Source of the DNA: an uncultured Gemmatimonadales bacterium
GTDB lineage: Bacteria > Gemmatimonadota > Gemmatimonadetes > Longimicrobiales > RSA9
DNA: 64,000 nucleotides
Assembly: GCA_963783305.1 (NCBI GenBank)
Contig: CAWAMW010000007.1
Coordinates: 288,001 to 352,000, forward strand
Direction of reading: 5' to 3'
How positions within the stretch are numbered: position 1 is the stretch's first letter; each line of letters starts with the position of its first letter. The notes under the pieces are model-generated. The model saw only the letters and a list, made by a program, of their open reading frames with translations. It did no database searches and had not been told where the DNA came from. Made by a program: the position numbers and the translations under genes. Shown one piece after another: positions 6,604 to 20,099 of the stretch.

Positions 6604-9066
6604 ATGGAAGCGAACCGGGGGGACCTGTACCTCGGGGGTGAGGTCGACCCCACGACGGGTGACCGTACGGGTGCGGACGTAGTCGTGCCGGCCCACCACC
6701 TGACCACCCACGGCGTCATCCTGGGAATGACAGGGTCGGGAAAGACCGGCCTGGGTGTGGTGCTCCTGGAGGAGGCGCTGCTCTCGGGCGTGCCGATCCT
6801 CGTGCTGGACCCCAAGGGCGACATGGGCAACCTGCTCCTCACCTTTCCGGACCTGCTCCCGAAGGACTTCCTCCCGTGGGTGGACCCGGCTGAGGCGCGG
6901 CGAAAAGGGGTCGAGGTGGACGCGCTCGCGGCGTCGACGGCCGGGGCGTGGCGGGAGGGCCTGGCGTCGTGGGGGATCGGGCCCGATCGGATCCGTCGGC
7001 TGCGCGACGCCGCCGCGTTCACTCTGTACACGCCGGGCTCCAGCGCCGGCGCTCCAATGAACCTGCTCGGTTCCCTGCGTGCGCCCGCGATCGGACCGGC
7101 CGGTGCGTGGGGGGCGCCGGACATGGAGGCGAAGCGAGAGGAGATCGAGGGATTCGTGTCCAGCCTGTTGACGCTGGCGGGCGTGGACTCGGACCCGCTC
7201 TCGAGCCCGGAGCACATCTTCCTGTCCACCCTCATCGAGCACGAGTGGGCGGCGGGCCGGGACCTGGAGTTCGCCGACCTCATCCGACTGGCCCAGGATC
7301 CGCCCTTCCGGAAGCTCGGAGTCTTCGGGCTGGACGAGTTCTTCCCTGCAAAGGAGAGACGCGGGCTGGCGATGCGGCTGAACGCGCTGATGGCATCGCC
7401 GTCGTTTGCCTCCTGGCTCGAGGGGCCGCCGTTTGACCCGGGCTCCCTGGCGAGGGGAGCGGACGGCCGGACGGGCGCGTCGATCGTCTACCTGGCCCAC
7501 CTCTCCGACGCGGAGCGGCAGTTCGTCGTTACGATGCTCCTGACGCGCGTGATCACGTGGATGCGGCAGCAGCCGGGGACCTCCGACCTCCGCCTGCTGA
7601 TCTACATGGACGAGATGTTCGGGTTCGCGCCCCCCACCGCCGCCCCACCGTCGAAGAAGCCGATCCTCACGATCTTCAAGCAGGCGCGGGCTCATGGCGT
7701 GGGCATGGTGGTGTCGACACAGAACCCCGTAGACCTGGACTACAAGATCGTCTCCAACGCCGGGACCTGGATGCTGGGTCGTCTGCAGACGGAGCGGGAC
7801 AAGGCCCGCGTCCTGGAAGGCCTCCGGTCCGCGAGCGGAGCCGTGGACGTGCGTTCGGTGGACGCGCTCTTGAGCGGGCTGCGGCAGCGGGAGTTCATCC
7901 TGCGCACCACCCGGAGTGCTGAACCCTCCGTCTTCACCACCCGCTGGGCCATGTCCTATCTGCGAGGCAACCTCACCCGCGAAGAGGTCGGGCGGCTGGC
8001 AGGAGCAGCACCGAACTCGGGGATGGCCGGGGCGCCCGGGACAACCGCGGACGCCGGCGGGGGCGGGGGCGGGGGCGCGGGCGGGGTGGCATCGGGCGGA
8101 GGCGCCGCGGCGGCCGCGGAGGCGGTGGCTGGCGACCTCGGCCCGGACGAAACACCGGTGGCGCCGTCGGTCCCTTCGTCTGTGCCGGTATACTATCTGG
8201 ACCCGGCCGCGCCGTGGGCGGGTGACGTGGGGGGCGTGCCAGGCTCGAGCCGACTCGAGCCGGCGCTGGTGGCGCGACTTCGCCTCACGTTCGATGACCG
8301 GCGCGCACAGGTGGATCACACCGAGGAGTGGGAAGCGGTTTTCTTCCCTCTCACGACGCATTTCAACGCCGCGAGCGGCCGGGATGTCGACTACGACGAG
8401 CGGGACTTCCGCGACCAGCCGCCCCGGGACGCCCGGTACGTGCTGAGCGAAGCGCCTATCACGAGCCCAGCCTTCTTCAAGGACGCCGGGCGGGCCCTGC
8501 TGGACGAGGCCTGGCGACGGCGCGAGCTGACGGTGCTCCGGAACGGGGACCTCGGACTGTATTCCCGGCCGGGAGAGCAACGTGAGACATTCCTCGAGCG
8601 GTGCCGCACGGCGGCCACAGTGAAAGCCGACGAGGCCGCGGCGGCGCTACGGGACCGCTATGAGAAGAAGATCGATCGAGTCCGGGACGCGCTGGCCCGT
8701 GCGGAGAGCCGGGTACGGGAGCTCGAAGTGGATGTGTCGGCGCGCAAGCAGCAGGAGGTCGTGGCGGGCGCCGGGAAACTGCTCTCCATGTTCCTCCGCG
8801 GCCGGGCCAGCGCCGCCGGGCTGTCAGGTGTGGCGTCCCGGAGGTCCATGACGCGACGTGCAGAGGAGCGGCTCCGTACCTCCACAGAACGGCAGGCGGG
8901 ACAGGAGGCGGAGATCCGGGACCTGGAGGACGAGCTCGCGGACGAGCTGCGGGCGATCATGGACGAGTGGGAGGGACGGGCGGGAGCCGTGGATGCGGTG
9001 GAGATCGGACTGGAGAAGGACGACGTGGCCGTCGAGGAGATCGGGCTCCTGTGGATCCCCAGGTGA
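6604..9066 (+). CDS. HerA/FtsK-superfamily (DUF87-like) P-loop ATPase with C-terminal coiled coil
   Basis: TTHGVILGMTGSGKT Walker A; LVLDPKGD; LIYMDE Walker B; KQARAHG, STQNP; Gly/Ala linker; helical C-terminus. Confidence 0.8.
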   Translation: MEANRGDLYLGGEVDPTTGDRTGADVVVPAHHLTTHGVILGMTGSGKTGLGVVLLEEALLSGVPILVLDPKGDMGNLLLTFPDLLPKDFLPWVDPAEARRKGVEVDALAASTAGAWREGLASWGIGPDRIRRLRDAAAFTLYTPGSSAGAPMNLLGSLRAPAIGPAGAWGAPDMEAKREEIEGFVSSLLTLAGVDSDPLSSPEHIFLSTLIEHEWAAGRDLEFADLIRLAQDPPFRKLGVFGLDEFFPAKERRGLAMRLNALMASPSFASWLEGPPFDPGSLARGADGRTGASIVYLAHLSDAERQFVVTMLLTRVITWMRQQPGTSDLRLLIYMDEMFGFAPPTAAPPSKKPILTIFKQARAHGVGMVVSTQNPVDLDYKIVSNAGTWMLGRLQTERDKARVLEGLRSASGAVDVRSVDALLSGLRQREFILRTTRSAEPSVFTTRWAMSYLRGNLTREEVGRLAGAAPNSGMAGAPGTTADAGGGGGGGAGGVASGGGAAAAAEAVAGDLGPDETPVAPSVPSSVPVYYLDPAAPWAGDVGGVPGSSRLEPALVARLRLTFDDRRAQVDHTEEWEAVFFPLTTHFNAASGRDVDYDERDFRDQPPRDARYVLSEAPITSPAFFKDAGRALLDEAWRRRELTVLRNGDLGLYSRPGEQRETFLERCRTAATVKADEAAAALRDRYEKKIDRVRDALARAESRVRELEVDVSARKQQEVVAGAGKLLSMFLRGRASAAGLSGVASRRSMTRRAEERLRTSTERQAGQEAEIRDLEDELADELRAIMDEWEGRAGAVDAVEIGLEKDDVAVEEIGLLWIPR

Positions 9067-9141
9067 ATACCCCTCGTCGAGGGAACGCGCAGCCCCGACT
9101 CACTCGCGCGTCCGCGAGGTGGCTTCTGGGGTCCGTCACCG

Positions 9142-10029
9142 CTATGGCTCCAGCTCGCTCCGATTCCAGCCGCCGAGATCAGCCGCTGCGGCGTACGCGG
9201 AACGGAGGAAGGCCAAGGCACCCTCTTCGTCGACGGTCGCTTCAGCGGGCGCAGGCCATGGGAGCACGAACTCATGGAGATCCTGATGGTACGCGCCCCC
9301 CGAGGTGACCCGGGCCTCCGGGAATCCCTCCGGCTCGGGGTACGCGTAGGCGTAGAATGCCGGCTGCGGGAACGCCTCGCTGCCCGGCCACCAGCCGGCG
9401 CTGAACACCTCGTGTGAGTAGGCTTCCCGGGTCACCCAGTCCGCCAGGCTGGGGAACCCGCCCGGGTGGGGAGGGGCAGCTCGGCCCGAGAAGCGGCTGA
9501 CGGCGAGATCGAAGCTGCCCCAGAAGAAGTGCACGGGGCTGGATTTCCCGATGAACTCGCCACGGAACCGCCTGAGGATGCGATCCGCGCCAGCAAGGGC
9601 ACGGAAGAGGCTGGTGACCTTCTCCGCCTCGTATGAGCGGTGGACCCGGTCCTCGTCAAATGGGATCGGATTCGCCACTTCAACCGGCCGTCGCCAGAAA
9701 TCGACCTCGAGCCCGTGCTCGCGCAGCGCGCCCACGAGCCTGTCGTGGAACTCCGCCACTGTCATGGGCAGGAGCGGCACGCGGGCCGCGCTCCCGTCCG
9801 AAATGGTGATCCGACACTCGTGCTCCACCAGGTCCAGGTCGATCTCGAACGTCCTGTCACCATGAGGGAGCGGCCCCGTGCCGAGCCCGCGGGTGGTCAC
9901 GTGCTGGGCGATGTGCCACCAGTGGTTCACGGATGGGGCCAGCGCAAGCTGGATCTTTCCCACGATCTGGGTCCACATGTGGAGTGTTCCCAGCGACTCG
10001 CGCCAGGCCTCATACGGCTGACCGCTCAT
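9142..10029 (-). CDS. DUF5996 family protein
   Basis: TLHMWTQIVGKI, NHWWH, GKSSPVHFFWGSFDLAVSRFSGR, EAYSHE motifs. Confidence 0.85.
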   Translation of the reverse strand: MSGQPYEAWRESLGTLHMWTQIVGKIQLALAPSVNHWWHIAQHVTTRGLGTGPLPHGDRTFEIDLDLVEHECRITISDGSAARVPLLPMTVAEFHDRLVGALREHGLEVDFWRRPVEVANPIPFDEDRVHRSYEAEKVTSLFRALAGADRILRRFRGEFIGKSSPVHFFWGSFDLAVSRFSGRAAPPHPGGFPSLADWVTREAYSHEVFSAGWWPGSEAFPQPAFYAYAYPEPEGFPEARVTSGGAYHQDLHEFVLPWPAPAEATVDEEGALAFLRSAYAAAADLGGWNRSELEP

Positions 10030-10193
10030 GACGGCCCCCCGTCCGGTTCGGCGGCCGCTTCGTTCGCCTTTTCAAGGGCGGAATCGATTGTGGACGATGT
10101 GAGCGCAAGCTGGTCCGGGTAGCACCATGCCCAGTCCTCGCCCGGCTCGTAGAAGCGGATGACCTGGTCGAGGTGCGTGCACCGGGTGGCCAT
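10026..10193 (-). pseudogene. Internally deleted bacterial UBP-type zinc-finger gene (55 aa)
   Basis: MATRCTHLDQ joined directly to VIRFYEPGEDWAWCYPD; both ends match zf-UBP proteins but the central Cys/His core is missing; AAAGG RBS; ATGA overlap with DUF5996 gene. Confidence 0.65.
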
Positions 10194-10552
10194 GGTTCAG
10201 CCTTTCGTTGGGGCAGACTGTCGATTCAGCCGTCTTGGCGCGGGCCGCAAGGCAGGTTTCAGGGCGACCACGAGTGTGAGCGGGTGCGGGATCTGTGCCA
10301 GAGGCAGAATCCCGCGTGTGGCGCGCGGAGATTCGCCGAAGACCCGGGGTATGCGCCCCTCGGGGCGCGCTCGGCATGGGGAAGGGCGGGGCGGGGACCG
10401 CCAGATCAGGCGGCCCGAGTGGCCACCTCCCGGTGTGCGACGCGGGTCCCGTGGTCCATGGGGACGGTTCGCAGGAATCCATGGCTCATGGCACGACGGC
10501 TTGTGGGTCCGGAGTGAAAGGGGCCGGCGTCGGTCCGCGCGGAAGTGCCGCC

Positions 10553-11347
10553 TCAAAGCGTTCTCCAGGCGAACGCCGACCCCGCCACGACGGTCAGAGC
10601 CGCGGCCACTACCTGGTTGACGCGTAACCCCCGAACCACCTCCGACTCGCGGCGCAGCGGCTCGAGCCAGACACGGCCAAGCCCATACCATGCGAGCACG
10701 GCGAGGGCATAGGACCCGGTGGGGAACGGTCTCGGCCACAACCAGACCAGGCCGGCACACGCCAGGAGCCACCAGCCGATCTCGAGCCATTGCACGGGAA
10801 CGCGGCGCCTGCGGACGCCGAGGACATCGTGCTGCCGAAGCGCGAACCATCGGTCCGAATCGCGGCCTACGCAGCAGCCGTTGCAGATGCAGCCGAAACG
10901 GATCCACGCACCGCCCACGGCGATCGCAATGGCCGCGTGGTCCCAGAAGACGCCGGTGGGGATGCCGAAGATCGAGGCGAACAGGAGCGACGACGGCACC
11001 ACAACGAGGCTGCCGAGGACGCTCCCGCCACCCAGGCCGGGCCGCCGAGCCGTGGCAAGGAAGCCGGCCGCCCGGTAGACCCGGAAGTGTAGCGCCATAT
11101 GGTAGAGTCGTGCGGCGAGCAGTCCCACGATGGCGACCAGCAGCATTCCCGCCCCGAGCCGGAGCGGCGAGGTGTCGGATCTCAGGCCTACGGCCGCGGC
11201 CGTCAGGATGCCGGAGTAGATGCCGACGCAGCAGAATACCCGATAGGCGTTGACGCGGTGACCCGCGATCCTGAAGGAGCGCGGGAAGGCGGCAGCGTTC
11301 GCTGTGCTCCACGTTCCCTCGGCGCTCCGCTGGGTGAGGCGGGTCAT
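10553..11347 (-). CDS. Divergent prolipoprotein diacylglyceryl transferase (Lgt) family protein
   Basis: Polytopic membrane protein; WDH..IRFGCICNGCCVG, PVQWLE, YGLGRVWLEPLR match Lgt motifs; HGG motif replaced by VLGS. Confidence 0.75.
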   Translation of the reverse strand: MTRLTQRSAEGTWSTANAAAFPRSFRIAGHRVNAYRVFCCVGIYSGILTAAAVGLRSDTSPLRLGAGMLLVAIVGLLAARLYHMALHFRVYRAAGFLATARRPGLGGGSVLGSLVVVPSSLLFASIFGIPTGVFWDHAAIAIAVGGAWIRFGCICNGCCVGRDSDRWFALRQHDVLGVRRRRVPVQWLEIGWWLLACAGLVWLWPRPFPTGSYALAVLAWYGLGRVWLEPLRRESEVVRGLRVNQVVAAALTVVAGSAFAWRTL

Positions 11348-11766
11348 GAAAGCGCCCTGACGAGATCGAACGCGAGAGCGATCACGCCGATGGTGAGGGC
11401 CACGTCGGCGAGGTCGAAGGCCGGCCAGAAGCGCAGGCAGACGTAGTCACAGACCGACCCGCGCACCGACGTCTCGAGGGCATGGCTGAGCGAGCCACCG
11501 AGCAGCAGGCCGAACGCCCACCCCGTGGCTGGGAGCATCACGGCGGCGCCGATCGCCGCACCGGCGGCGGCGACCCACACGGCCCACAACGCTGGCAACG
11601 ACACCCCGCCCAGAGCACGCCGGCCCCAGATCTGGCTCTCCACTACGCGGAGTTCACCGAGGACGCCGAGAGGGAGGGTCCGTTCGCCCACGCGGCGGCG
11701 CACCACCCGCTTGACGGTGTGATCGAACATCGGAACCACGACGGCGCAGACCAGGAGGGCGTTCAT
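11344..11766 (-). CDS. Divergent lipoprotein signal peptidase II (LspA) family protein
   Basis: FDHTVK, LLLGGSLSH, GSVCDY and WPAFDLADVAL correspond to LspA DQxxK, GGALGN, VVDF and FNVAD. Confidence 0.75.
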   Translation of the reverse strand: MNALLVCAVVVPMFDHTVKRVVRRRVGERTLPLGVLGELRVVESQIWGRRALGGVSLPALWAVWVAAAGAAIGAAVMLPATGWAFGLLLGGSLSHALETSVRGSVCDYVCLRFWPAFDLADVALTIGVIALAFDLVRALS

Positions 11767-11784
11767 CGCAGGTCTGGTAGGCCC

Positions 11785-14430
11785 TCAGTACGCCGGGCGG
11801 CGGCTCCCGCCATGCCGCTGGGTGCCGAGTTGGATGCGCGAGATCCGCCCCTCGGGGTCGATCTCGATCGTCGTGGGCCAGCAGCGGACCCCGAACGCCC
11901 CGGCGACTCGGTGCTCCGCGTCCTCCACGACGGGGAGGGAAAGCCCGTGCTCGTTGCAGATCGCGTCGAGGTTGCGGGAATCGTGGCTGCCATGGAAGGC
12001 GAGGATGAACGGGGCCGCCTTGTCGGCATCGCGCATTGCCTGCACGCGGTGCAGCTCGGCGAGGCAGGGGGTGGACCAGGACTGCCAGAACGTGAGCAGC
12101 ACGGGCCGCCCACGGAGCCGGTGCAGCGCCCCAGAATGGCCCCGGTCGTCGCGGAAATGGAAGTCGGGCGCCGGGTCGCCCACACCCACGCTCAGCCGCA
12201 GGGGCCGAAAGCGCGGCTCTGGTGTGGCGCTCGTGTGCTGGTCGAGCGCCTGGGCGGCGGCCGCGGAATCGAGGGTGCCCGCGGCGCTCCAGGCGACCTC
12301 GCGGCGCGCATTGATCAGGAAGAGGGACGGCCGGTTGCTTACGTCGAAGGTTCGCGCCCACCCGCCCGCCGTATCCTCGACCACCTGCACGCGCGGGGCG
12401 GCGGTCGCCGGGAACACCTCGAGCCGGGTCTCGAGCTGGCGTCGGGAGGCCTCGAACGCGCCCGCCGGGAGTATGACGAACACGGCCAGCGCGATTTGCT
12501 GGCGACGGCGCGTTTTCAGCGCCGTGGCGAGACTGTCGAACGGCCGATCGGTGTCCCAGTCGGGGAAGAAGACGAGCGCATTCTGCGTGGGCCCCTGCTG
12601 CAGCGTGTCGTTCTGGACAGCGACGTCTGCCGCGACAGCGTCCCTGAGCGGCCCATCCTCCGGCACGTCCGGCATCCACACCGGCACGGTAACCGGCTCC
12701 CACCAGGACGGGGCGTCGAAGGCTACGACGGGCTCATTGACCTCGCACGTCGTGCCGGCGGTGACATCTTCCACGCTGCCGTCGGGCAGGATGCGCTCGC
12801 CCTCGATACGCAGGCAGATCCGGCTGAGCTCGGTGATGCCCGGCGGCTTCTCGAGGATGAAGCGGTCGGCGTCGGCCAAAGACTTCTCCTCACCGGACCA
12901 GATCGTGGGTCCCCGGAGCCGATCCGTCGGGTACTCGACCCAGGACCAGATGAAGCGGTCGATGCGACCACCGGGGATCCAGCTCTCGAACGCGGTGAAC
13001 GCGTCGCCCAGGCCGGTTTCGCTGATTCGCACCACCGGCGCGATCCGCTGCGCGCTCGTGAAATCGCCGCGGACGGTGACACCGTTCGTCGACATGTCCA
13101 GCTCCGTGTACCGGACGGACCCGGAGCCCTCGAAGGCCTGCAGCGCCTCGGTCAGGCTCTCGTTGGCGTCCCGGAACACGGCCCGGACCGCGGACTCGTT
13201 GGCGGCGAGGGCGGTGGCGATCTCGGATCTGACCATGTTGACCGCGCGGCTGTGGGGGATGAACCACGACTCGTCGACCTGGGGATCGCCCAACGCTTCG
13301 AGGTCCACTCTCCCTGTTGCGGGGTCCAGCACGAGCCCGATCCGCTGCTCGAATTCAACGTACCCGTCGGGCGCCCAGAACGTCTCGGTTTCGACCTCCA
13401 CGCGACCCTGGATCTCGATGAATGCGGCGTGGAAGCTCAGCGAGGGGCCCGCCGAGAACCGGAGCCCATAGGTCAACCGGCCGCCGAACAGCCCTGTGCG
13501 CAGACGTAGCGTGATGGTCCTTTGCGCGATGGCGTCGCGAATCCCGTCGAGGGCGATCTGGCTCGCCACGTACTCCCGACCGACGGCGAACGCGAACCCA
13601 CTGGAGCCGAGGGCTGGCTGCGTGATGCCGCCGAGGCCCGTCGGAGGGGCCGGACTGCCGGACAGCTGAAGGGGAAGGGCGATCGCGGTGTTCTGGCCGC
13701 TTCCCAGGCCCTTGAAACCCGTGAACGGGAATCCGTCCGGCAGGTCGATCGGCGGCATGACGATCCGCTCACGGAGGACCTTGCGGACCTGGCCGGTGAT
13801 CCTGGCGATGTCCGCGTCGCTGAGGCCGCTGGCCGGGCGGGGGACGAACTCGATCTTCTGGTCCTCCGCGGAGGGCTCGACAATAAGCCGCGCGCCAGCG
13901 CCGGCCCCCACCTTCCGGACCTCGAACACCGCGCGCACTTCGCCGTGGACATGCTCGGGCAGCTCGGTCGTGCCCGCGTCGGCTTCGTAGCGGACCCGCG
14001 CATCCGCGTGCACTGTGATCTCTGACGTCGACCCCTCGGCGACGCTGACCCGGACGGTCGACAGTTGCAGCGCGGCGGTGCCGCGGATCACGTCGCGCGG
14101 TGCCGGCACGGGGAACGCTTCGAGCTCCTCCAGCGACGCGGCCACCCGTCGAGCAGCACCCGGCGGCGAGGCTGCGACCAGCCGGTCACGGATCGGCTGC
14201 CGGGAGTCGGGAGGGCGCGTACGCTCCAGTTGGACCACCCAGTCGCCGAACGCCTCCAGCTCTGGCCCCCGGTGCCGCAGCTCGCCGACCTGTGTGCGCG
14301 CGCTGTGCAGCAGCTTCAGGGGCGCGTCGGCGCTCGCGCCGTTCTGGTGCAGAGTCGCGAGCAAGCCGTTGATCTGCCGGGTCGCGATCTGCACCACGGC
14401 ATCGAAGTCTCCGGTCAGTGGGTTCGGCAT
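11785..14430 (-). CDS. 881-aa protein: unknown N-terminal region plus two C-terminal thioredoxin-fold (TlpA/redoxin-like) modules
   Basis: VGDPAPDF...LLTFWQSWSTPCLAEL...FGVRCWPTTIEIDPEG; preceding degenerate copy (FDVSNRPSLFLINARREV); no signal peptide. Confidence 0.75.
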   Translation of the reverse strand: MPNPLTGDFDAVVQIATRQINGLLATLHQNGASADAPLKLLHSARTQVGELRHRGPELEAFGDWVVQLERTRPPDSRQPIRDRLVAASPPGAARRVAASLEELEAFPVPAPRDVIRGTAALQLSTVRVSVAEGSTSEITVHADARVRYEADAGTTELPEHVHGEVRAVFEVRKVGAGAGARLIVEPSAEDQKIEFVPRPASGLSDADIARITGQVRKVLRERIVMPPIDLPDGFPFTGFKGLGSGQNTAIALPLQLSGSPAPPTGLGGITQPALGSSGFAFAVGREYVASQIALDGIRDAIAQRTITLRLRTGLFGGRLTYGLRFSAGPSLSFHAAFIEIQGRVEVETETFWAPDGYVEFEQRIGLVLDPATGRVDLEALGDPQVDESWFIPHSRAVNMVRSEIATALAANESAVRAVFRDANESLTEALQAFEGSGSVRYTELDMSTNGVTVRGDFTSAQRIAPVVRISETGLGDAFTAFESWIPGGRIDRFIWSWVEYPTDRLRGPTIWSGEEKSLADADRFILEKPPGITELSRICLRIEGERILPDGSVEDVTAGTTCEVNEPVVAFDAPSWWEPVTVPVWMPDVPEDGPLRDAVAADVAVQNDTLQQGPTQNALVFFPDWDTDRPFDSLATALKTRRRQQIALAVFVILPAGAFEASRRQLETRLEVFPATAAPRVQVVEDTAGGWARTFDVSNRPSLFLINARREVAWSAAGTLDSAAAAQALDQHTSATPEPRFRPLRLSVGVGDPAPDFHFRDDRGHSGALHRLRGRPVLLTFWQSWSTPCLAELHRVQAMRDADKAAPFILAFHGSHDSRNLDAICNEHGLSLPVVEDAEHRVAGAFGVRCWPTTIEIDPEGRISRIQLGTQRHGGSRRPAY

Positions 14431-14431
14431 A

Positions 14432-15046
14432 TCAGCTCACGTCGATGCGCTGGACGATCAAGACGACGCTCCGAGTGTTGTAGCCGGATTGCCGATCGGC
14501 CGTCAGGGCTTCGTGCAGGGGAGGATCCTGGACCGGTCCAATGAACGCCGTGGCGTCGGTACTCGGCACGGTCTCCGATACGGACATCCTGCCGGGATCC
14601 CCGACGTCGAACGCGAGCAACAGCGGACTCATCCCGTCGAAGGCGAAATCCACCCACTTCAGCTCCATGACCTCTTCGCCCTCCTCAGCGGCGGGTACCA
14701 GGAGTGGGTAGCTCTCAGGGACCAGCTTCGGGTCGGCCGCCGAGTCGTACGGGTCGCCAACGCCCGACGGCTGGGAAATCGTGATGCTCTGGATGATGAG
14801 ATTGCTGTCCGGAGGGCGCTGCAGGGTGAGGCGGACCCTGTCGCCGGTCCCGGCCAGGCGGTCCGGCTCGATCCGCTGAACGAGGCAGCGGTTCCTCATC
14901 TCCCTCGTCTCCGCCAGCGTGATCTCGAAGGCCTTTCGCGGCACGGCCGATTCGAAAAGAAGGCTGCAGCCGGCAAAGCCGAAGAGGAGCACGACCGGAA
15001 CCAGAACGACCGGGATCAGGACGACTAATGCGAGCCACTCGATCAT
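14432..15046 (-). CDS. Putative lipoprotein with atypical signal peptide
   Basis: MIEWLALVVLIPVVLVPVVLLFGFAG-C: long hydrophobic segment ending in FAGC; GGAGAGG RBS. Confidence 0.7.
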   Translation of the reverse strand: MIEWLALVVLIPVVLVPVVLLFGFAGCSLLFESAVPRKAFEITLAETREMRNRCLVQRIEPDRLAGTGDRVRLTLQRPPDSNLIIQSITISQPSGVGDPYDSAADPKLVPESYPLLVPAAEEGEEVMELKWVDFAFDGMSPLLLAFDVGDPGRMSVSETVPSTDATAFIGPVQDPPLHEALTADRQSGYNTRSVVLIVQRIDVS

Positions 15047-15147
15047 CCGCCTCTCCCCGGGTGGAGGAACATGGAGCCGTCAGACAGCCGGATGGCGGCG
15101 TCGAAATCCGGCGCGAGCCCGAGGGCGAACAGGGCGAACCATGGCAT
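15043..15147 (-). CDS. Small ORF (34 aa) translationally coupled to the lipoprotein gene
   Basis: AAGGA RBS; MPWFALFALGLAPDFDAAIRLSDGSMFLHPGRGG*; TGA overlaps next ATG (ATGA). Confidence 0.4.
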   Translation of the reverse strand: MPWFALFALGLAPDFDAAIRLSDGSMFLHPGRGG

Positions 15148-15435
15148 GGGGGTCCTTGGTCGTGGGGGCTGGTCCGGACGCACCTCGTTCGGGCCAGTGA
15201 CCTGAGCGGGATCGGCAGCCGCCGTCGCCGCCTGTTCGACCAGGATTCGGCCGAGGGAAATACTTGTGAGGGCTGCAGATGCATACGTTGGGCTCCCGGT
15301 GAAGTCAATCGTGACGTTTGATACACGCCCGAAATCAAGATCGGAGAGAACTGGAGCGGATAGAGGAGTTGGGGGTGATAACGTCGAGCAGGAAGGGAAG
15401 CGCCGCCGCGCGCTGTGGTCGCAGGTTGGAGGGCC

Positions 15436-15479
15436 ATGGAATACCCCGAAGCGATCGGGTATCGCTTCGGGGTTTCCAT
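15436..15479. terminator. Long hairpin downstream of adh (terminator or mRNA stabiliser)
   Basis: ATGGAA-T-ACCCCGAAGCGAT-cgggt-ATCGCTTCGGGGT-TTCCAT; no U-tract on the minus strand. Confidence 0.45.
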
Positions 15480-15563
15480 TTGAGGACCGGCTGCGCTGTT
15501 GAGCGTGCGGGCCCGGGCTCTCACGGGTGCGGAACGATCCGCTTCCGCCCCGTCTTCCGCGGG

Positions 15564-16622
15564 TCAGCGGGAGATGGCGACCTTCATGGACTTGGTCTCC
15601 GCAGCCCGGCCGAAGATGTCGTACGCCTCCATCATATCATCCAGCTTGAAGCGGTGCGTCACGAACTGCTCGGGCTTCAGCTTGCCCTGGCTGACGAGCT
15701 TGAGGAGCATCGGCGTCGTGGTGGCGCTGACGAGCCCGGTGGTGATGCTGACGTCCTTGATCCAGAGCTCCTGCAGCTTGAGCTCCACCGACTTGCCGTG
15801 GACGCCCACATTGGCCACCGAGGCGCCCGGGCGGATGAGCGAAGTGCACATGTCGAACGTCTCGGGGATGCCTACAGCCTCGATGGCGACGTCCACGCCC
15901 AGGCCGCCGTCCGTCATGGCCAACACCTGATCCCGCCAATCGTCCTTGCCGCTGTTGACGGTGTCCGTGGCGCCAAACTTCCGCGCCATCTCGAGCCGGT
16001 TGTCGTCCAGGTCAATGGCGATGACGCGGGAGGCGCCGTGGAGCCCGGCGGTCATGATCACGGAGAGCCCGACGGGACCCGCGCCGACGACGGCCACCAC
16101 ATCACCCGGCTGCACGTCGCCGTTGCGGATGCCGATCTCGAATCCGGTAGGCAGGATATCGGAGAGCATGATCGCGGCCTCGTCGCTGACTTCGTCCGGA
16201 AGCTTGTGCAGCGAGTTGTCGGCGAACGGGATGCGCACGTATTCCGCCTGCGTCCCGTCGATCAGGTGGCCCAGGATCCAGCCGATCCCCGACGTCCCTT
16301 CGGCGTCCAGGCAGTGGGACGGAAGCTGCTGGTGGCAGTATGCGCACGAGCCGCACGCCGTGATGCACGAGATGATCACCCGGTCGCCGACCTCGAGCCC
16401 TTTCACCGCCGACCCTACTTCCGTGACCGTGCCGACGCCTTCATGGCCGAGGATCCGGCCGTCGGTGACCGCAGGCACGTCGCCCTTCAGGATATGCAGG
16501 TCCGTGCCGCAGATGGTGGTGGTATCGATCTGAACGATCGCGTCGGTAGGCTCCAGTATCTTCGGGTCCGGCACCTCTTCCCACGACTTCTGGCCGGGCC
16601 CGTGATAGACGAGTGCTTTCAT
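15564..16622 (-). CDS. Zinc-dependent alcohol dehydrogenase (MDR family)
   Basis: ICGTDLH, GHEGVG, CGSCAYC..C structural Zn, GAGPVG NAD-binding motif; AGGAAGGA RBS. Confidence 0.95.
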   Translation of the reverse strand: MKALVYHGPGQKSWEEVPDPKILEPTDAIVQIDTTTICGTDLHILKGDVPAVTDGRILGHEGVGTVTEVGSAVKGLEVGDRVIISCITACGSCAYCHQQLPSHCLDAEGTSGIGWILGHLIDGTQAEYVRIPFADNSLHKLPDEVSDEAAIMLSDILPTGFEIGIRNGDVQPGDVVAVVGAGPVGLSVIMTAGLHGASRVIAIDLDDNRLEMARKFGATDTVNSGKDDWRDQVLAMTDGGLGVDVAIEAVGIPETFDMCTSLIRPGASVANVGVHGKSVELKLQELWIKDVSITTGLVSATTTPMLLKLVSQGKLKPEQFVTHRFKLDDMMEAYDIFGRAAETKSMKVAISR

Positions 16623-16715
16623 GTGCGTTCCTTCCTGTACAGGGCTCATTCGAGGGTGACGCGTTGTCACCTGGTTCACTCAAAAAAGCCGTGGGGGGCG
16701 CGCTGCCCATACCCC

Positions 16716-16729
16716 ATGATCAAGATCAT
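16716..16729. promoter_or_regulatory. FNR/CRP-like palindrome upstream of adh
   Basis: ATGAT-CAAG-ATCAT versus FNR consensus TTGAT-N4-ATCAA. Confidence 0.4.
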
Positions 16730-16867
16730 TCCGAATGGGACGGCGGGAAGCCGGGAGATGCCGCGTTCTGGTGTGGGGAATCATCCCGACGCCACCGATT
16801 GCGGCATTGTCGACTTCGGCGGGGCTGGCTTCGTAGGCTCCAACCAGCCCGACTCGCTCCGGTGCAG

Positions 16868-17338
16868 TCAACGCTCGATCTCAGCCACTTCGTCGGGGTC
16901 ATAGCGGTCCGACGCGGCGAGGTACCGCTCGAGTGAGCCGGACACGAGAGCCGCACCGGAGGTCGAGCCGCCGGGGCGTGTTGAGGCCTCCTGGGCGGAT
17001 TTCGCCAGATCGATCAGCGGGGCGAGCTGGAGCGTGATCGAGTTGCGGGGGTCCGTGCCGCGGAAGTAATGAAGGATCGGATACTGAGCGTGGGCCTGGA
17101 TCAGGTGGATCAGCTCGCGGGCGACATGCTCGAGCCACCGCTCTCGTTCCTGCTCCAGGGACGAGGGGTGATCCCCGGTCGGGCCGGCCCTGTAGCTGAG
17201 AGCGGCGGAGAGGAGGGCGAATCGGCTCAGTGCCTGCAGGATCGAGAGGAGCCGGAGGGCCACGAGATCGGGGACGATACCGCCCGTCCCGAGTGTTGCG
17301 GCGGCGAATCCACTGAAGTAGAGCGCACGCTGGGGCAT
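16868..17338 (-). pseudogene. Truncated potassium-channel-family (Ion_trans_2-like) gene remnant
   Basis: ALYFSGFAAATLGTGGIVP (pore helix/filter-like, cf. TLGYGD) and YPILHYFR; N-terminal TMs absent. Confidence 0.55.
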
Positions 17339-17453
17339 TCCAGACCGTTCACGCTGTAGGGCGCCGGCCGATTCCAGTGGGGGGAAAGCCGGGCGGAGCC
17401 GTGGAAAGACGTGGCCTGCCGGCGGTCGGTCCGGCGCCGCGTTTTTGCCCGGC

Positions 17454-20099
17454 TCAGTCGGATCGCAGTGCCGTGACGGGGTCCACGCGGACGGCGGTCC
17501 GAGCGGGGATCCACGATGCGGCGAGGGCGGTGGCGGCGAGGATGGCGATGACGGCGCCGTAGGTGACGGGATCGAGGCGGGAGACGCCGAATAGGAGTGA
17601 ATCGAGGGCGCGCGTGATGACCAGGGCGGCGCCCAGGCCGAGGGCGGTACCGAGGCCGGCCAGGGTGAGTCCCCGGCGGAGTACGCCGGTGAGGATGCGG
17701 CTGCGGGTGGCGCCGAGGGCGGAGCGAACGCCGAGCTCACGTCGTCGTTCGGCCACACTACCGGCGAGGACTCCGAAGATGCCGATGGCGGCGAGGGCGA
17801 GAGCGACGAGGGCGAAGGCCTGGAACAGCCAGTAGGCGAAGCGACGTTCCGCGGCGGACGAAGTGATGAGGCCTTCCAGGGTCGTGACCTGAACCACGGG
17901 CTGGTCAGTGTCGATGGCCCGGACTGCGTCCTGGAGCGCCGGCACGAGGGCGCCGGGTTCCCGGTCGGTCCGGATCACGAGCCAGACGGCCCGGTCGGCG
18001 AAATACCATTGGTCGGGCAGGACGTAGACGGCGGGGGTGGGTCCGGCGGCCAGCGACCGGTGGGCGACGTCGCCGGCCACGCCCACCACGGTGAACGCCG
18101 GCCAGTCGGTCCGGCCGCCGACGCGGACCTGGCGTCCAATGGGATCCTGGCCGGGGAACCGGCTGCGGGCCAGCGACTCGCTGAGGACGGCGGTGGCGGC
18201 GCCGGCGGCGTCCCGGGGCTCGAACCCGCGGCCCTGGCGGAGGGGGACGCCCATGGCCTGGAGGTAGCCGGGGCTGACCGCATAGCGGTAGACGCCAGCG
18301 TCCTGATCGGAGCTCTCCGGCGGTGCGGGGACGGGCTGGACGCCGTAGCGGTCGTCCTGTCCGCTCAGGGGCAGCTGGCTGGTCAGTGCCGCGGCCTCGA
18401 CGCCCGGAACGCTGCGGACTTCGTCGAGAACACGGCGGTAGAAGGTCCGCACGGCGTCGTCGTCGGAGTAGCGGTCGCCGGAGACCTGGACCTGGAGGGC
18501 CACGGCGCGGGTTGGGTCGAAGCCGGGGTCCACGTCGAGGAGGCGGGTCACGCTGCGTAGCAGGAGCCCGGCGCCCACGAGGAGAACCAGGGTGAGCGCC
18601 ACCTCGGCGACGACGAGGGCGTCACCGCCAGCCGACCGACCCCGGACCGGACCGGCCCGCCCGATGGCGTGGCGGGGGTCGTTCCGCGCGGCCCGGAGAG
18701 CGGGGGCGAGGCCCACGGCAATGCCCGCGAGCGCGGCTACGGCCAGTGCGGTGGCGAACACGGTGCCATCGAGCTGGATGGCGTCGGCCCGGGGCAGGCC
18801 CTCAGGGATCAGCGCGACGACCGACCGAACGCCAGCGGCGGCCAGGGCCAGCCCGCCCAGGGCGCCGAGTCCGGCGAGGAGCAGGCTCTCGGTGAGAAGC
18901 TGCCGGACGAGCCGGCACCGGTCTGCACCGAGGGCGGCCCGCATGGCGAACTCCTCGCGCCGCCGTGCGCCCCGGGCCAGCAGCAGGCTCGCCACGTTGA
19001 CGCAGGCAATGATCAGGAGCAGCACCACCGCCCCCAGAAGCGCCGTGAGCGTGGGCCGAGCGGACCCGGTGACGCGCTCCTTCAGTGATGTGATATGGAA
19101 GCCCTGCTCCAGCGAGGCCCAGGCCGGCCGGGCGAAGCCGTCCACGGGGTTCGCGGCGATCCGCTGCAGCTCCCGGGTCGCGGGGTTCGGCCCCAGCCCG
19201 GTCCGGACGCGGGCCACCATGTCCAGGTGATGGCCCCACTCCCGGCTCTGGAACGTGGGCAGAGACGCGTCGTACTGCAGGGGCGCCCAGATCCGGGCCG
19301 CCGGCGCTGTGACATTCTCGAAGCCCCGGGGCAGCACGCCGACGATGGTGAACGGCCGCCCGTCGAGGGCTACCCGCCGGCCCACTACGTCCTGGTTGCC
19401 ACCGAACCGGGTCCGCCACAAGCCGTAGTCGATCATGGCCACGTCCGCACCGCCGGCCCGATCCTCCTCGCCAAATCCGCGGCCGAGGGCGGGCGCAACG
19501 CCCAGGACCCCGAAATAGTCGGCGCTCACGCGCTGGCCCATCAGCCGCTCCGTCCGGCCCACGCCGGAGAGCACCGGCTCCCACGGCTTCACCACCGCCG
19601 TCGCCTCGAACGAACCGCTCCGCTCCTGAATCTCCCGGAAGGTCCCGAACGTCACCGGCGCCGGGCTCCCCTCGGGGCCCACGTCCGCGATGGACAGGAT
19701 ACGGCCGGCGCCGGGGTAGGGCAGGGGCTCGAAGAGCACGGGTTTCACCGCGCTCACCATGGTGGCGGTGCCCCCGAGGCCCAGCGACAACGTGAGGACC
19801 GCCGCGGCCGTGAAGCCGGGCCGCTTCCGGAGCGACCGGGCGGCGTAGCGCAGGTCGGCGCCGGCGTCCTCGAGGACCCGGGTCCAGCGCGCGGCCCGGA
19901 CCTCCTCCTTGTACCGCTCCCGGCCCCGGAACGCCAATCCGGCCCGGCGACGGGCTTCGGCCCGGCTCATCCCCCGGTCGAGGTTCGCTTCCGTCTCCCG
20001 CTCCAGGTGGAAGGCCAGCTCCTCATCCAGCTCCCGCTCCAGCGCGTCCTTGTCGAACAGTGCGCGCAGCTGCTTCCAGAGTCCGCGGATCCGGTCCAT
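17454..20099 (-). CDS. ADOP-family duplicated ABC permease (MacB/FtsX x2)
   Basis: Permease prefix ELDEELAFHLE, DLRYAARSLRKRPGFT, LLIIACVNVASLLLAR, RVDPVTALRSD; no ATPase adjacent. Confidence 0.92.
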   Translation of the reverse strand: MDRIRGLWKQLRALFDKDALERELDEELAFHLERETEANLDRGMSRAEARRRAGLAFRGRERYKEEVRAARWTRVLEDAGADLRYAARSLRKRPGFTAAAVLTLSLGLGGTATMVSAVKPVLFEPLPYPGAGRILSIADVGPEGSPAPVTFGTFREIQERSGSFEATAVVKPWEPVLSGVGRTERLMGQRVSADYFGVLGVAPALGRGFGEEDRAGGADVAMIDYGLWRTRFGGNQDVVGRRVALDGRPFTIVGVLPRGFENVTAPAARIWAPLQYDASLPTFQSREWGHHLDMVARVRTGLGPNPATRELQRIAANPVDGFARPAWASLEQGFHITSLKERVTGSARPTLTALLGAVVLLLIIACVNVASLLLARGARRREEFAMRAALGADRCRLVRQLLTESLLLAGLGALGGLALAAAGVRSVVALIPEGLPRADAIQLDGTVFATALAVAALAGIAVGLAPALRAARNDPRHAIGRAGPVRGRSAGGDALVVAEVALTLVLLVGAGLLLRSVTRLLDVDPGFDPTRAVALQVQVSGDRYSDDDAVRTFYRRVLDEVRSVPGVEAAALTSQLPLSGQDDRYGVQPVPAPPESSDQDAGVYRYAVSPGYLQAMGVPLRQGRGFEPRDAAGAATAVLSESLARSRFPGQDPIGRQVRVGGRTDWPAFTVVGVAGDVAHRSLAAGPTPAVYVLPDQWYFADRAVWLVIRTDREPGALVPALQDAVRAIDTDQPVVQVTTLEGLITSSAAERRFAYWLFQAFALVALALAAIGIFGVLAGSVAERRRELGVRSALGATRSRILTGVLRRGLTLAGLGTALGLGAALVITRALDSLLFGVSRLDPVTYGAVIAILAATALAASWIPARTAVRVDPVTALRSD

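Follow-up and report, generated by a model that had tools for sequence, protein, structure and literature searches.

The window analyzed here, a stretch of 64,000 nucleotides (nt) from an uncultured Gemmatimonadales bacterium (assembly GCA_963783305.1, contig CAWAMW010000007.1, positions 288,001 to 352,000 of the forward strand), carries a cassette of four large co-oriented genes on its minus strand. They encode an atypical prolipoprotein, an accessory protein of 881 amino acids (aa), and members of the LspA and Lgt families whose charge bias is the reverse of the usual one, and we discuss how this enzyme pair may serve a lipoprotein pathway of its own. The features of the locus are as follows.

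14432..15046, minus strand: substrate prolipoprotein, 204 aa; an atypical signal of 26 aa, then Cys27, with a domain of 178 aa that belongs to no Pfam family
14966..15046, minus strand: the atypical signal; an acidic residue and Trp at the start, no Lys or Arg, a 23-residue apolar run, Pro at -15 and -10, and a G-F-A-G-C box; predicted N-out signal anchor
11785..14430, minus strand: 881-aa accessory protein; no signal peptide or transmembrane (TM) segment, predicted cytoplasmic, with a C-terminal TlpA/ResA-like domain
11344..11766, minus strand: cassette LspA, 140 aa, of the signal peptidase II family; retains the D107/D121 Asp dyad and has a reversed charge bias
10553..11347, minus strand: cassette Lgt, 264 aa, of the prolipoprotein diacylglyceryl transferase family; retains the lipid-binding network and has a reversed charge bias
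15043..15147, minus strand: 34-aa small open reading frame (sORF); unsupported as a gene, probably a 5' leader or promoter region

An earlier sequence-only reading of this DNA had described five tightly packed co-oriented genes. The coordinates of the four large genes were confirmed, as were all junctions: ATGA overlaps between the sORF and the lipoprotein gene and between lspA and lgt, 1 nt between the lipoprotein and 881-aa genes, and 18 nt between the 881-aa gene and lspA. The fifth member did not hold. The sORF had no family match, and it was dropped from the system because it had no homolog among the fetched loci (best other E value, 0.32); the stretch is probably a 5' leader and not a gene.

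Both enzymes belong to their families by sequence. Cassette Lgt matches PF01790 (E value 2e-25; 89.9 bits against a cut-off of 24.9) and E. coli Lgt (E value 3e-11), and cassette LspA matches PF01252 (E value 4e-11; 43.7 bits against a cut-off of 25), with both proteins scoring far under the NCBIfam equivalog cut-offs. Cassette Lgt has the seven-helix layout and aligns colinearly with the host housekeeping copy across 242 columns, so that no TM segment has been gained or lost. The host genome (96% complete) contains one further lgt and two further lspA genes, which score much higher than the cassette copies; the two ordinary-type lspA genes are loci L003 and L004. An ordinary lgt and lspA were also present besides the cassette in 5 of 5 other cassette genomes checked, so that separate housekeeping enzymes, which the sequence-only reading had wanted confirmed, were found in every case.

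Homologs of the 881-aa protein numbered 227 among 8000 scored candidates, and a profile scan with its family yielded 27 genome loci and 79 metagenome loci, the latter from the best 80 of 113 matches. Record titles of the cassette loci name Actinomycetota, Alphaproteobacteria, Acidobacteriota, Planctomycetota, Verrucomicrobiota and others, and one cultured carrier is Smaragdicoccus niigatensis. Across all 27 genome loci, the signal was present in 25, LspA in 25, Lgt in 22 and all three in 20. For the 21 genome loci with at least 1.5 kb on each side (two of them on one contig), the corresponding counts were 21, 20, 18 and 18, and for the 10 metagenome loci flanked in the same way they were 10, 10, 9 and 9. 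Gene order was frequently the same, with rearrangements in several loci, and the co-occurrence of the four large genes, proposed earlier as a check, was borne out: gene content is kept across phyla. A scan with cassette Lgt uncovered sister cassettes, some of them without the 881-aa gene. When the sister Lgt alignment was used, the best 80 of 588 matches comprised ordinary Lgts in 65 cases (24-34% identity) and sister loci in 15 (39-69%). At 10 of the 15 sister loci, versus 0 of the 65 ordinary-Lgt control loci, a nearby gene in the same orientation as lgt encodes a protein whose non-basic signal ends in F/T-x-G-C; among the remaining sister loci, an eleventh signal protein is incomplete, three loci stop at a contig edge, and one has no signal protein. 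The core is therefore cassette Lgt, cassette LspA and the odd signal, which accompanies these enzymes also at loci lacking the 881-aa gene; part of the family has the 881-aa protein in addition, as an accessory.

In FastTree phylogenies, cassette and ordinary copies were split by one branch, with support of 100 for Lgt and 98 for LspA. The split was still supported (96) in a tree restricted to TM columns, which rules out loop composition as the driver of the tree. The cassette was not found in 40 relatives, in all of which only the redoxin domain matched, and a profile of the close-clade Lgts matched only the host (G000) among 401 genomes sampled from the phylum. The 40 relatives include the unpublished genomes G020, G021, G024 and G026, which enter only this negative result and the phylum samples. 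Inheritance within the host lineage was rejected on these grounds, and the absences suggest lateral spread of the cassette. Neither cassette Lgt nor the 881-aa protein had a relative in viral_contigs, by which a phage origin was rejected, although the unnamed Atlas cluster nearest to the cargo domain is 78% viral (score 0.92). The ratio of nonsynonymous to synonymous substitution (dN/dS; Nei-Gojobori, window genes against four relatives) was approximately 0.19-0.39 for both enzymes and the 881-aa gene and approximately 0.5 for the lipoprotein; between two close relatives, it was near 0.95 for the lipoprotein and 0.26-0.42 for the other cassette genes. The window genes are under purifying selection, and the figures describe a conserved machine with a fast-changing cargo.

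Some loci show unusual arrangements. Genome G328 (L020, L247) carries a close-clade 881-aa gene and lipoprotein without enzymes and, roughly 60 kb off on the same contig according to the record coordinates, a sister cassette with enzymes; at L079, both enzyme types are adjacent. In sister cassettes without the 881-aa gene, the lipoproteins and lspA are separated by the gene for a small coiled-coil protein whose tail is rich in Cys and Pro (L145:9868-10434, L154:9714-10208, L159, L160 and L079). An apparent fusion of the 881-aa gene and the lipoprotein gene at L119 proved to be an artefact of an ATGA overlap.

E. coli Lgt is described as having an acidic periplasmic head and a cationic cytoplasmic side (PMC4728403), whereas for LspA the cationic end is placed on the cytoplasmic side together with the N- and C-termini (PMC8689077). 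The positive-inside rule is set out in PMC13261788, and a converse loop bias of Lys and Arg (K/R) has been read as opposite orientation in paired Fluc proteins (PMC3755343). In our alignments, ordinary Lgts carry K/R in the TM1-2, TM3-4 and TM5-6 loops and in the tail, whereas cassette Lgts lose these residues and gain others in the arms, the head and the TM6-7 loop. The Lgt bias, taken as K/R in the canonically cytoplasmic loops and tail minus K/R in the canonically periplasmic loops, was positive in all 60 controls (+5 to +14) and negative in all 45 close (-4 to -14) and all 23 sister (-5 to -15) cassette Lgts. The control set comprised the host Lgt and the control-locus Lgts that had 190 or more aligned residues, shorter fragments being excluded. 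The copy in the window has 3 inner and 16 outer K/R, versus 8 and 5 in the host housekeeping Lgt. K/R density of LspA was higher inside than outside in 24 of 25 controls, whereas of the 88 cassette proteins this was true of one of the 22 from the sister clade and none of the 66 from the close clade; the window LspA has none in the canonically cytoplasmic loop and 10 in the canonically outer segments. Median cytoplasmic-loop K/R falls from 10 to 2-3 in Lgt and from 3 to 0-1 in LspA. GC content was ruled out as the cause of the Arg-rich loops: 19 controls from loci of at least 58% GC stay normal, 17 cassette proteins from loci below 60% stay reversed, and pairs within one genome keep the bias. 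Six related actinobacterial Lgt fusions (L152, L153, L155-L158), on the same side of the tree and with no cassette-type LspA or signal nearby, were also reversed. Five of the six have a long conserved soluble N-terminal part without a hydrophobic segment (one ends at a contig end), and such a part is more easily placed inside than outside, which fits an N-in arrangement. The reversed positive-inside bias suggests that cassette Lgt and LspA are both inserted upside-down in the membrane.

Ordinary type II signals begin with a basic n-region, and their h-region is short (PMC9360617). The window signal is free of K/R, carries two prolines and an acidic third residue, and contains an F-A-G-C box; it was the only such signal in the host genome according to a hidden Markov model search. 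The lack of a basic n-region and the long Pro-containing h-region, both remarked on in the sequence-only reading, were confirmed, the apolar run being 23 residues long. In the close clade, the Trp-to-Cys spacing is the same in 59 of 61 distinct signals, Glu or Asp precedes the Trp in 55 of 59, and Pro occupies -15 and -10 in 56 of 59 each; the pattern used imposed the Trp and the box and left spacing, prolines and charge free. Of 111 signal calls in cassette loci, 107 had no K/R among residues 1-8, and after five unrelated neighbours were dropped, including the four with K/R, 106 remained. None of these 106 has K/R in the first 8 residues, versus 98 of 101 host lipoprotein signals, which were gathered without requiring charge and include the window substrate among the three without K/R. 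The apolar run ending at the Cys has a median of 23 residues, versus 13.5 in the host (maximum, 19), and reaches at least 21 in 101 of 106 cassette signals and in 0 of 100 host signals. Neither the positively charged n-region nor the short hydrophobic region of type II signals was thus found. The G/A-C of the lipobox is kept, and position -3 is Phe in 104 of 106 cassette signals versus 2 of 100 in the host, where the search pattern for the former required F, C or T. The cassette signal looks like a full transmembrane, N-out anchor. An acidic N-tail has been proposed to help N-out insertion by B. subtilis YidC and was not required in E. coli.

The lipid-binding network of Lgt comprises Y26, R143, E202, Y235, R239, E243 and R246 (PMC4728403, PMC8689077), and these positions are nearly invariant in cassette Lgts. 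Among 51 distinct sequences, Y35 was kept in 50, R150 in 47 (Lys in 4), E189 in 51, R225 in 48, E229 in 45 and R232 in 47, with 3 of the 51 incomplete at R225, E229 and R232, and Y221 was kept in 44 of 45. D107 and D121 of cassette LspA align with P. aeruginosa D124 and D143, the catalytic dyad of LspA (PMC9360617); D107 is conserved in all 69 sequences and D121 in 68 of them. To judge by these conserved residues, cassette Lgt may transfer diacylglyceryl to the lipobox Cys, and cassette LspA may cleave before the lipidated Cys.

Other positions have changed, and the flipped proteins might instead perform neither lipid transfer nor cleavage and serve the conserved signal as a receptor or scaffold in the membrane, which we regard as very improbable. 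The N-x-G-A-A-F motif of LspA and the Arg of G-N-x-x-D-R (the R116 position) provide N, F and R in 25 of 25 controls and are lost in 66 of 66 close proteins (0 of 66 kept; the Arg occurs in 7 of 22 sister proteins). In Lgt, the position of G27 at the start of TM1 is Lys in 41 and Arg in 2 of 45 close sequences, Pro in 18 of 23 sister sequences and Gly in 55 of 60 controls, a clade-specific change. The H103 position, part of the HGGL motif, has no His in 51 of 51 cassette Lgts, and H103Y inactivates E. coli Lgt. His is also found in only 5 of 60 ordinary controls, however (Tyr in 40, Phe in 7), and the host housekeeping Lgt has Tyr, so that this loss says little and was rejected as a mark of a dead or altered Lgt. 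Against a mere receptor stand the near invariance of the Lgt network and of both LspA aspartates, the Cys box that travels with the enzymes, and dN/dS values of about 0.2-0.4. The N146 and E151 positions are Cys in cassette Lgts; the same Cys occurs in 60 of 60 and 59 of 60 controls, which were fetched with that Cys motif. Ordinary Cys-motif Lgts (L174-L238, L001) mostly have Tyr at the proposed catalytic H103 position.

The 881-aa protein has no hydrophobic segment and no export signal. It had been called a redoxin-fold protein in the sequence-only reading, and this description applies only to residues ~750-870, where S-x-x-C takes the place of a C-x-x-C motif; no Pfam family was matched by the ~740 residues at the N-terminal end. 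Its C-terminal ~120 aa match TlpA/ResA (PDB 4NMU, E value 6e-22), from which the protein differs in having Ser for the first Cys and no membrane anchor. The first active-site Cys is replaced by Ser in 118 of 120 parsed copies, another Cys lies two residues before the W-P turn in 120 of 120, and in sister-clade copies the redoxin-domain cysteines are absent altogether. The N-terminal ~460 residues found no match in Pfam or the PDB by sequence. A language-model search with the N-terminal part retrieved unnamed clusters (0.92) and a TULIP/P47-like cluster (0.85), the latter as a lead only.

The cassette is a real, conserved variant of the lipoprotein pathway, for which the sequence evidence of inversion is strong, and a mobile and self-contained pathway is the best explanation of it. 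We consider it fairly likely that cassette Lgt and LspA form a dedicated mirror-image pathway in which the substrate is lipidated and cleaved at the cytoplasmic face of the membrane. The uncharged, TM-length signal with its acidic 3-residue N-tail would insert N-out or as a proline-kinked hairpin, and the lipobox Cys and the mature domain would remain cytoplasmic, beyond the reach of the housekeeping enzymes. Upside-down Lgt, its orientation predicted with controls and its chemistry presumed, would then move diacylglyceryl from phosphatidylglycerol onto the Cys in the inner leaflet. On the same basis, upside-down LspA would cut the signal via its Asp dyad, leaving a lipid-anchored beta-sandwich protein on the cytoplasmic face. 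The signal-less 881-aa protein could act as a cytoplasmic helper, speculatively as a lipid-shielding carrier or chaperone for the product, and its thioredoxin-like domain is probably no dithiol oxidoreductase. The product could also be lipidated inside and exported later; no recurrent transporter was found among the neighbours of 127 loci. Such a mirror-image pathway accounts most simply for all the components and would explain the need for a private enzyme pair. The sequence-only reading had proposed a dedicated maturation pathway for a non-standard signal class, which is supported by the separate housekeeping enzymes, the conserved gene content and a signal that tracks the enzymes (10 of 15 versus 0 of 65 loci); it overlooked the reversed membrane orientation, the likely reason for the private pathway.

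Several points weigh against the mirror-image pathway. The topology is predicted from charge alone, and the loop boundaries were drawn after the pattern was seen; out-of-sample tests therefore matter, and these are limited to a further sister set, paired Lgts and paired LspAs. All of these tests replicated the reversed bias. With the same boundaries, 119 of 119 scored sequences (of 120 further sister Lgts) were negative. Of 150 LspA representatives, a length filter left 124, and 122 of these received a score; the bias was reversed in 118 of the 119 that lack the canonical motif and in 1 of the 3 that have it. In each of five other genomes, the score was +6 to +9 for the housekeeping Lgt and -5 to -15 for the cassette Lgt; for LspA in paired genomes, ordinary copies were normal in 5 of 6 cases and cassette copies reversed in 5 of 5. 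By this charge proxy, the canonical Lgt layout (head and arms periplasmic, cationic side cytoplasmic) was replaced by its reverse in 68 of 68 and 119 of 119 sequences, and the canonical LspA layout (termini cytoplasmic, dyad and beta-cradle extracytoplasmic) was indicated in 1 of 88 cassette proteins. Related sequences are not independent, and therefore p-values are not relied on. Lys or Arg at the G27 position in 43 of 45 close Lgts means that activity may differ, since changes of G27 to L, Q or W inactivate E. coli Lgt. The TULIP lead found neither a PF06597 match on the 881-aa gene nor a PDB sequence match.

Further points of this kind concern the substrate. Many cargo domains that relatives carry behind the same or a related signal are of surface type: a scan of 48 of the 98 cargos gave fn3 in 19, LamG in 6 and TIG in 3. 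Downstream of the Cys, the first 15 residues average 0.7 K/R and 1.9 D/E, versus 0.6 and 2.8 in host lipoproteins; this flank is not basic, and C-in orientation of the substrate is therefore not positively signalled. In three cargos (L125, L139 and L141), the lipobox Cys is immediately followed by a Cys-rich module that probably forms disulfide bonds or binds metal. The surface-type cargos and the C-flank, no more basic than that of host lipoproteins, would suit a private pathway in the normal outward orientation, in which an exported lipoprotein has a long, uncharged signal that the housekeeping pair handles poorly and the Arg-rich outer loops bind an anionic partner or lipid. The co-occurrence data are equally compatible with this arrangement. 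We nevertheless consider it unlikely, since it leaves unexplained the loss of K/R from every cytoplasmic loop of both enzymes and the co-encoded 881-aa protein without an export signal.

The sequence-only reading had also raised the attachment of a different lipid. This is weakly hinted at by ether-lipid-type neighbours in some other lineages, but the host genome lacks them. Beside the cassette in about a dozen lineages lie genes with two PF01869 domains and PF09989, the activase and reductase domains of Ger/PlsA (PMC13159169), and UbiA prenyltransferases nearest to geranylgeranylglyceryl-phosphate types, below cut-offs, occur in 7 loci. An ether-linked or prenyl lipid as the very point of the pathway would be an add-on compatible with the mirror-image arrangement, and it seems quite unlikely to us: the host genome has no PF09989, Ger-like genes flank 4 of 65 ordinary Lgts too, and most cassette loci have neither type of neighbour. 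The Ger/PlsA-like activase-reductase and its partner gene adjoin the cassette at L021, L026, L034, L038, L040, L041, L049/L052, L059, L063, L067, L080/L082, L123, L127 and L165, and are co-oriented with it in several; those at ordinary Lgts directly follow lgt (L175, L180, L189, L193). The UbiA genes, under the NCBIfam cut-offs, are at L043:6509-7354, L046, L047, L065:1162-2136, L076:9983-10957, L086:2651-3580 and L167:4475-5383. The full proposal, namely a complete mirror-image pathway across many phyla with a new N-out signal class, diacylglyceryl-anchored inner-leaflet proteins, a TULIP-like cytoplasmic carrier and, in some lineages, an ether-lipid anchor, is held tentatively, at somewhat less than an even chance. 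The literature searched contains no account of diacylglyceryl anchoring at that leaflet.

Type IV prepilin peptidase, an aspartic protease of the membrane, also cleaves a signal class of its own (class III) at the cytoplasmic side, but that enzyme is unrelated, the leader removed is basic, the modification is methylation and not lipidation, and the hydrophobic helix is kept. The canonical Lgt-LspA system (E. coli Lgt, PDB 5AZB/5AZC; P. aeruginosa LspA, PDB 5DIR) shares with the cassette the protein families, colinear helices, the R143/R239 network, the D124/D143 dyad positions and the Cys-ended box. The cassette differs in the reversed charge bias of both enzymes, a separate tree lineage, a substrate with no basic n-region and a TM-length apolar run, enzymes encoded beside their substrates, and a patchy distribution across phyla. 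The reviews consulted place the active sites of Lgt and LspA and the mature domain of their substrates on the outer side of the cytoplasmic membrane. Paired Fluc proteins likewise include homologs with a converse K/R loop bias (PMC3755343), but there two opposite subunits form one channel, whereas in the cassette two enzymes of one pathway would both be flipped and act in series. Myxococcus xanthus (lspA1-4) and globomycin producers also have extra lspA genes besides the housekeeping set; these copies act on ordinary lipoproteins or self-protect, with no special signal class or paired Lgt described there (PMC8689077). Cassette LspA could by analogy be a spare, inhibitor-insensitive peptidase against globomycin or myxovirescin, as in producers, and its altered conserved pocket residues agree with this idea. 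We hold it to be exceedingly improbable, since biosynthetic genes are missing among recurrent neighbours and Lgt, the special signal and the reversed charges would be left unexplained. A full-text literature search for dedicated Lgt/LspA paralogs, inverted topology and cytoplasm-facing lipoproteins did not find the system, as judged from listed titles and abstract openings in a collection with few subscription journals.

Expression signals and neighbouring genes add some observations. Rfam gave no match within window positions 9000-17000, and no sigma-70 consensus promoter was found at the cassette. A 13-bp hairpin with a T run lies between a dehydrogenase gene and the cassette (15443-15473), and such sites are no commoner than in shuffles. 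A -10-like TAnnnT element occurs 5-19 nt ahead of the substrate start codon in 30 of 102 cases from cassette loci, where control windows average 3.5, and is not evident in our window; these sites suggest leaderless substrate transcripts in cassette loci. Elsewhere in the window, positions 6604-9066 (plus strand) encode a protein of 820 aa that has a Walker A motif and a tail resembling a coiled coil and that we take from its sequence to be HerA-like. An open reading frame at 16868-17758 (minus strand) with a weak Ion_trans_2 match (E value 0.001), possibly a channel remnant, overlaps the end of another 881-aa gene at 17454-20099, whose product is presumably of the ABC-permease type. A 55-aa open reading frame at 10026-10193 (minus strand) overlaps the start of a DUF5996 gene and presumably resembles a zinc-finger fragment.

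If the mirror-image pathway is correct, it would introduce a new class of signal and a further site at which proteins are lipid-anchored, and it would be a natural case of two enzymes of the same pathway flipping together, offering a direct test of membrane topology evolution. The system is small, with four genes, is present in cultured bacteria and can be tested by standard reporter fusions. It may also become an orthogonal tool with which to anchor cytoplasmic proteins at the membrane, and many annotated "extra" lgt and lspA copies would then have been misread.

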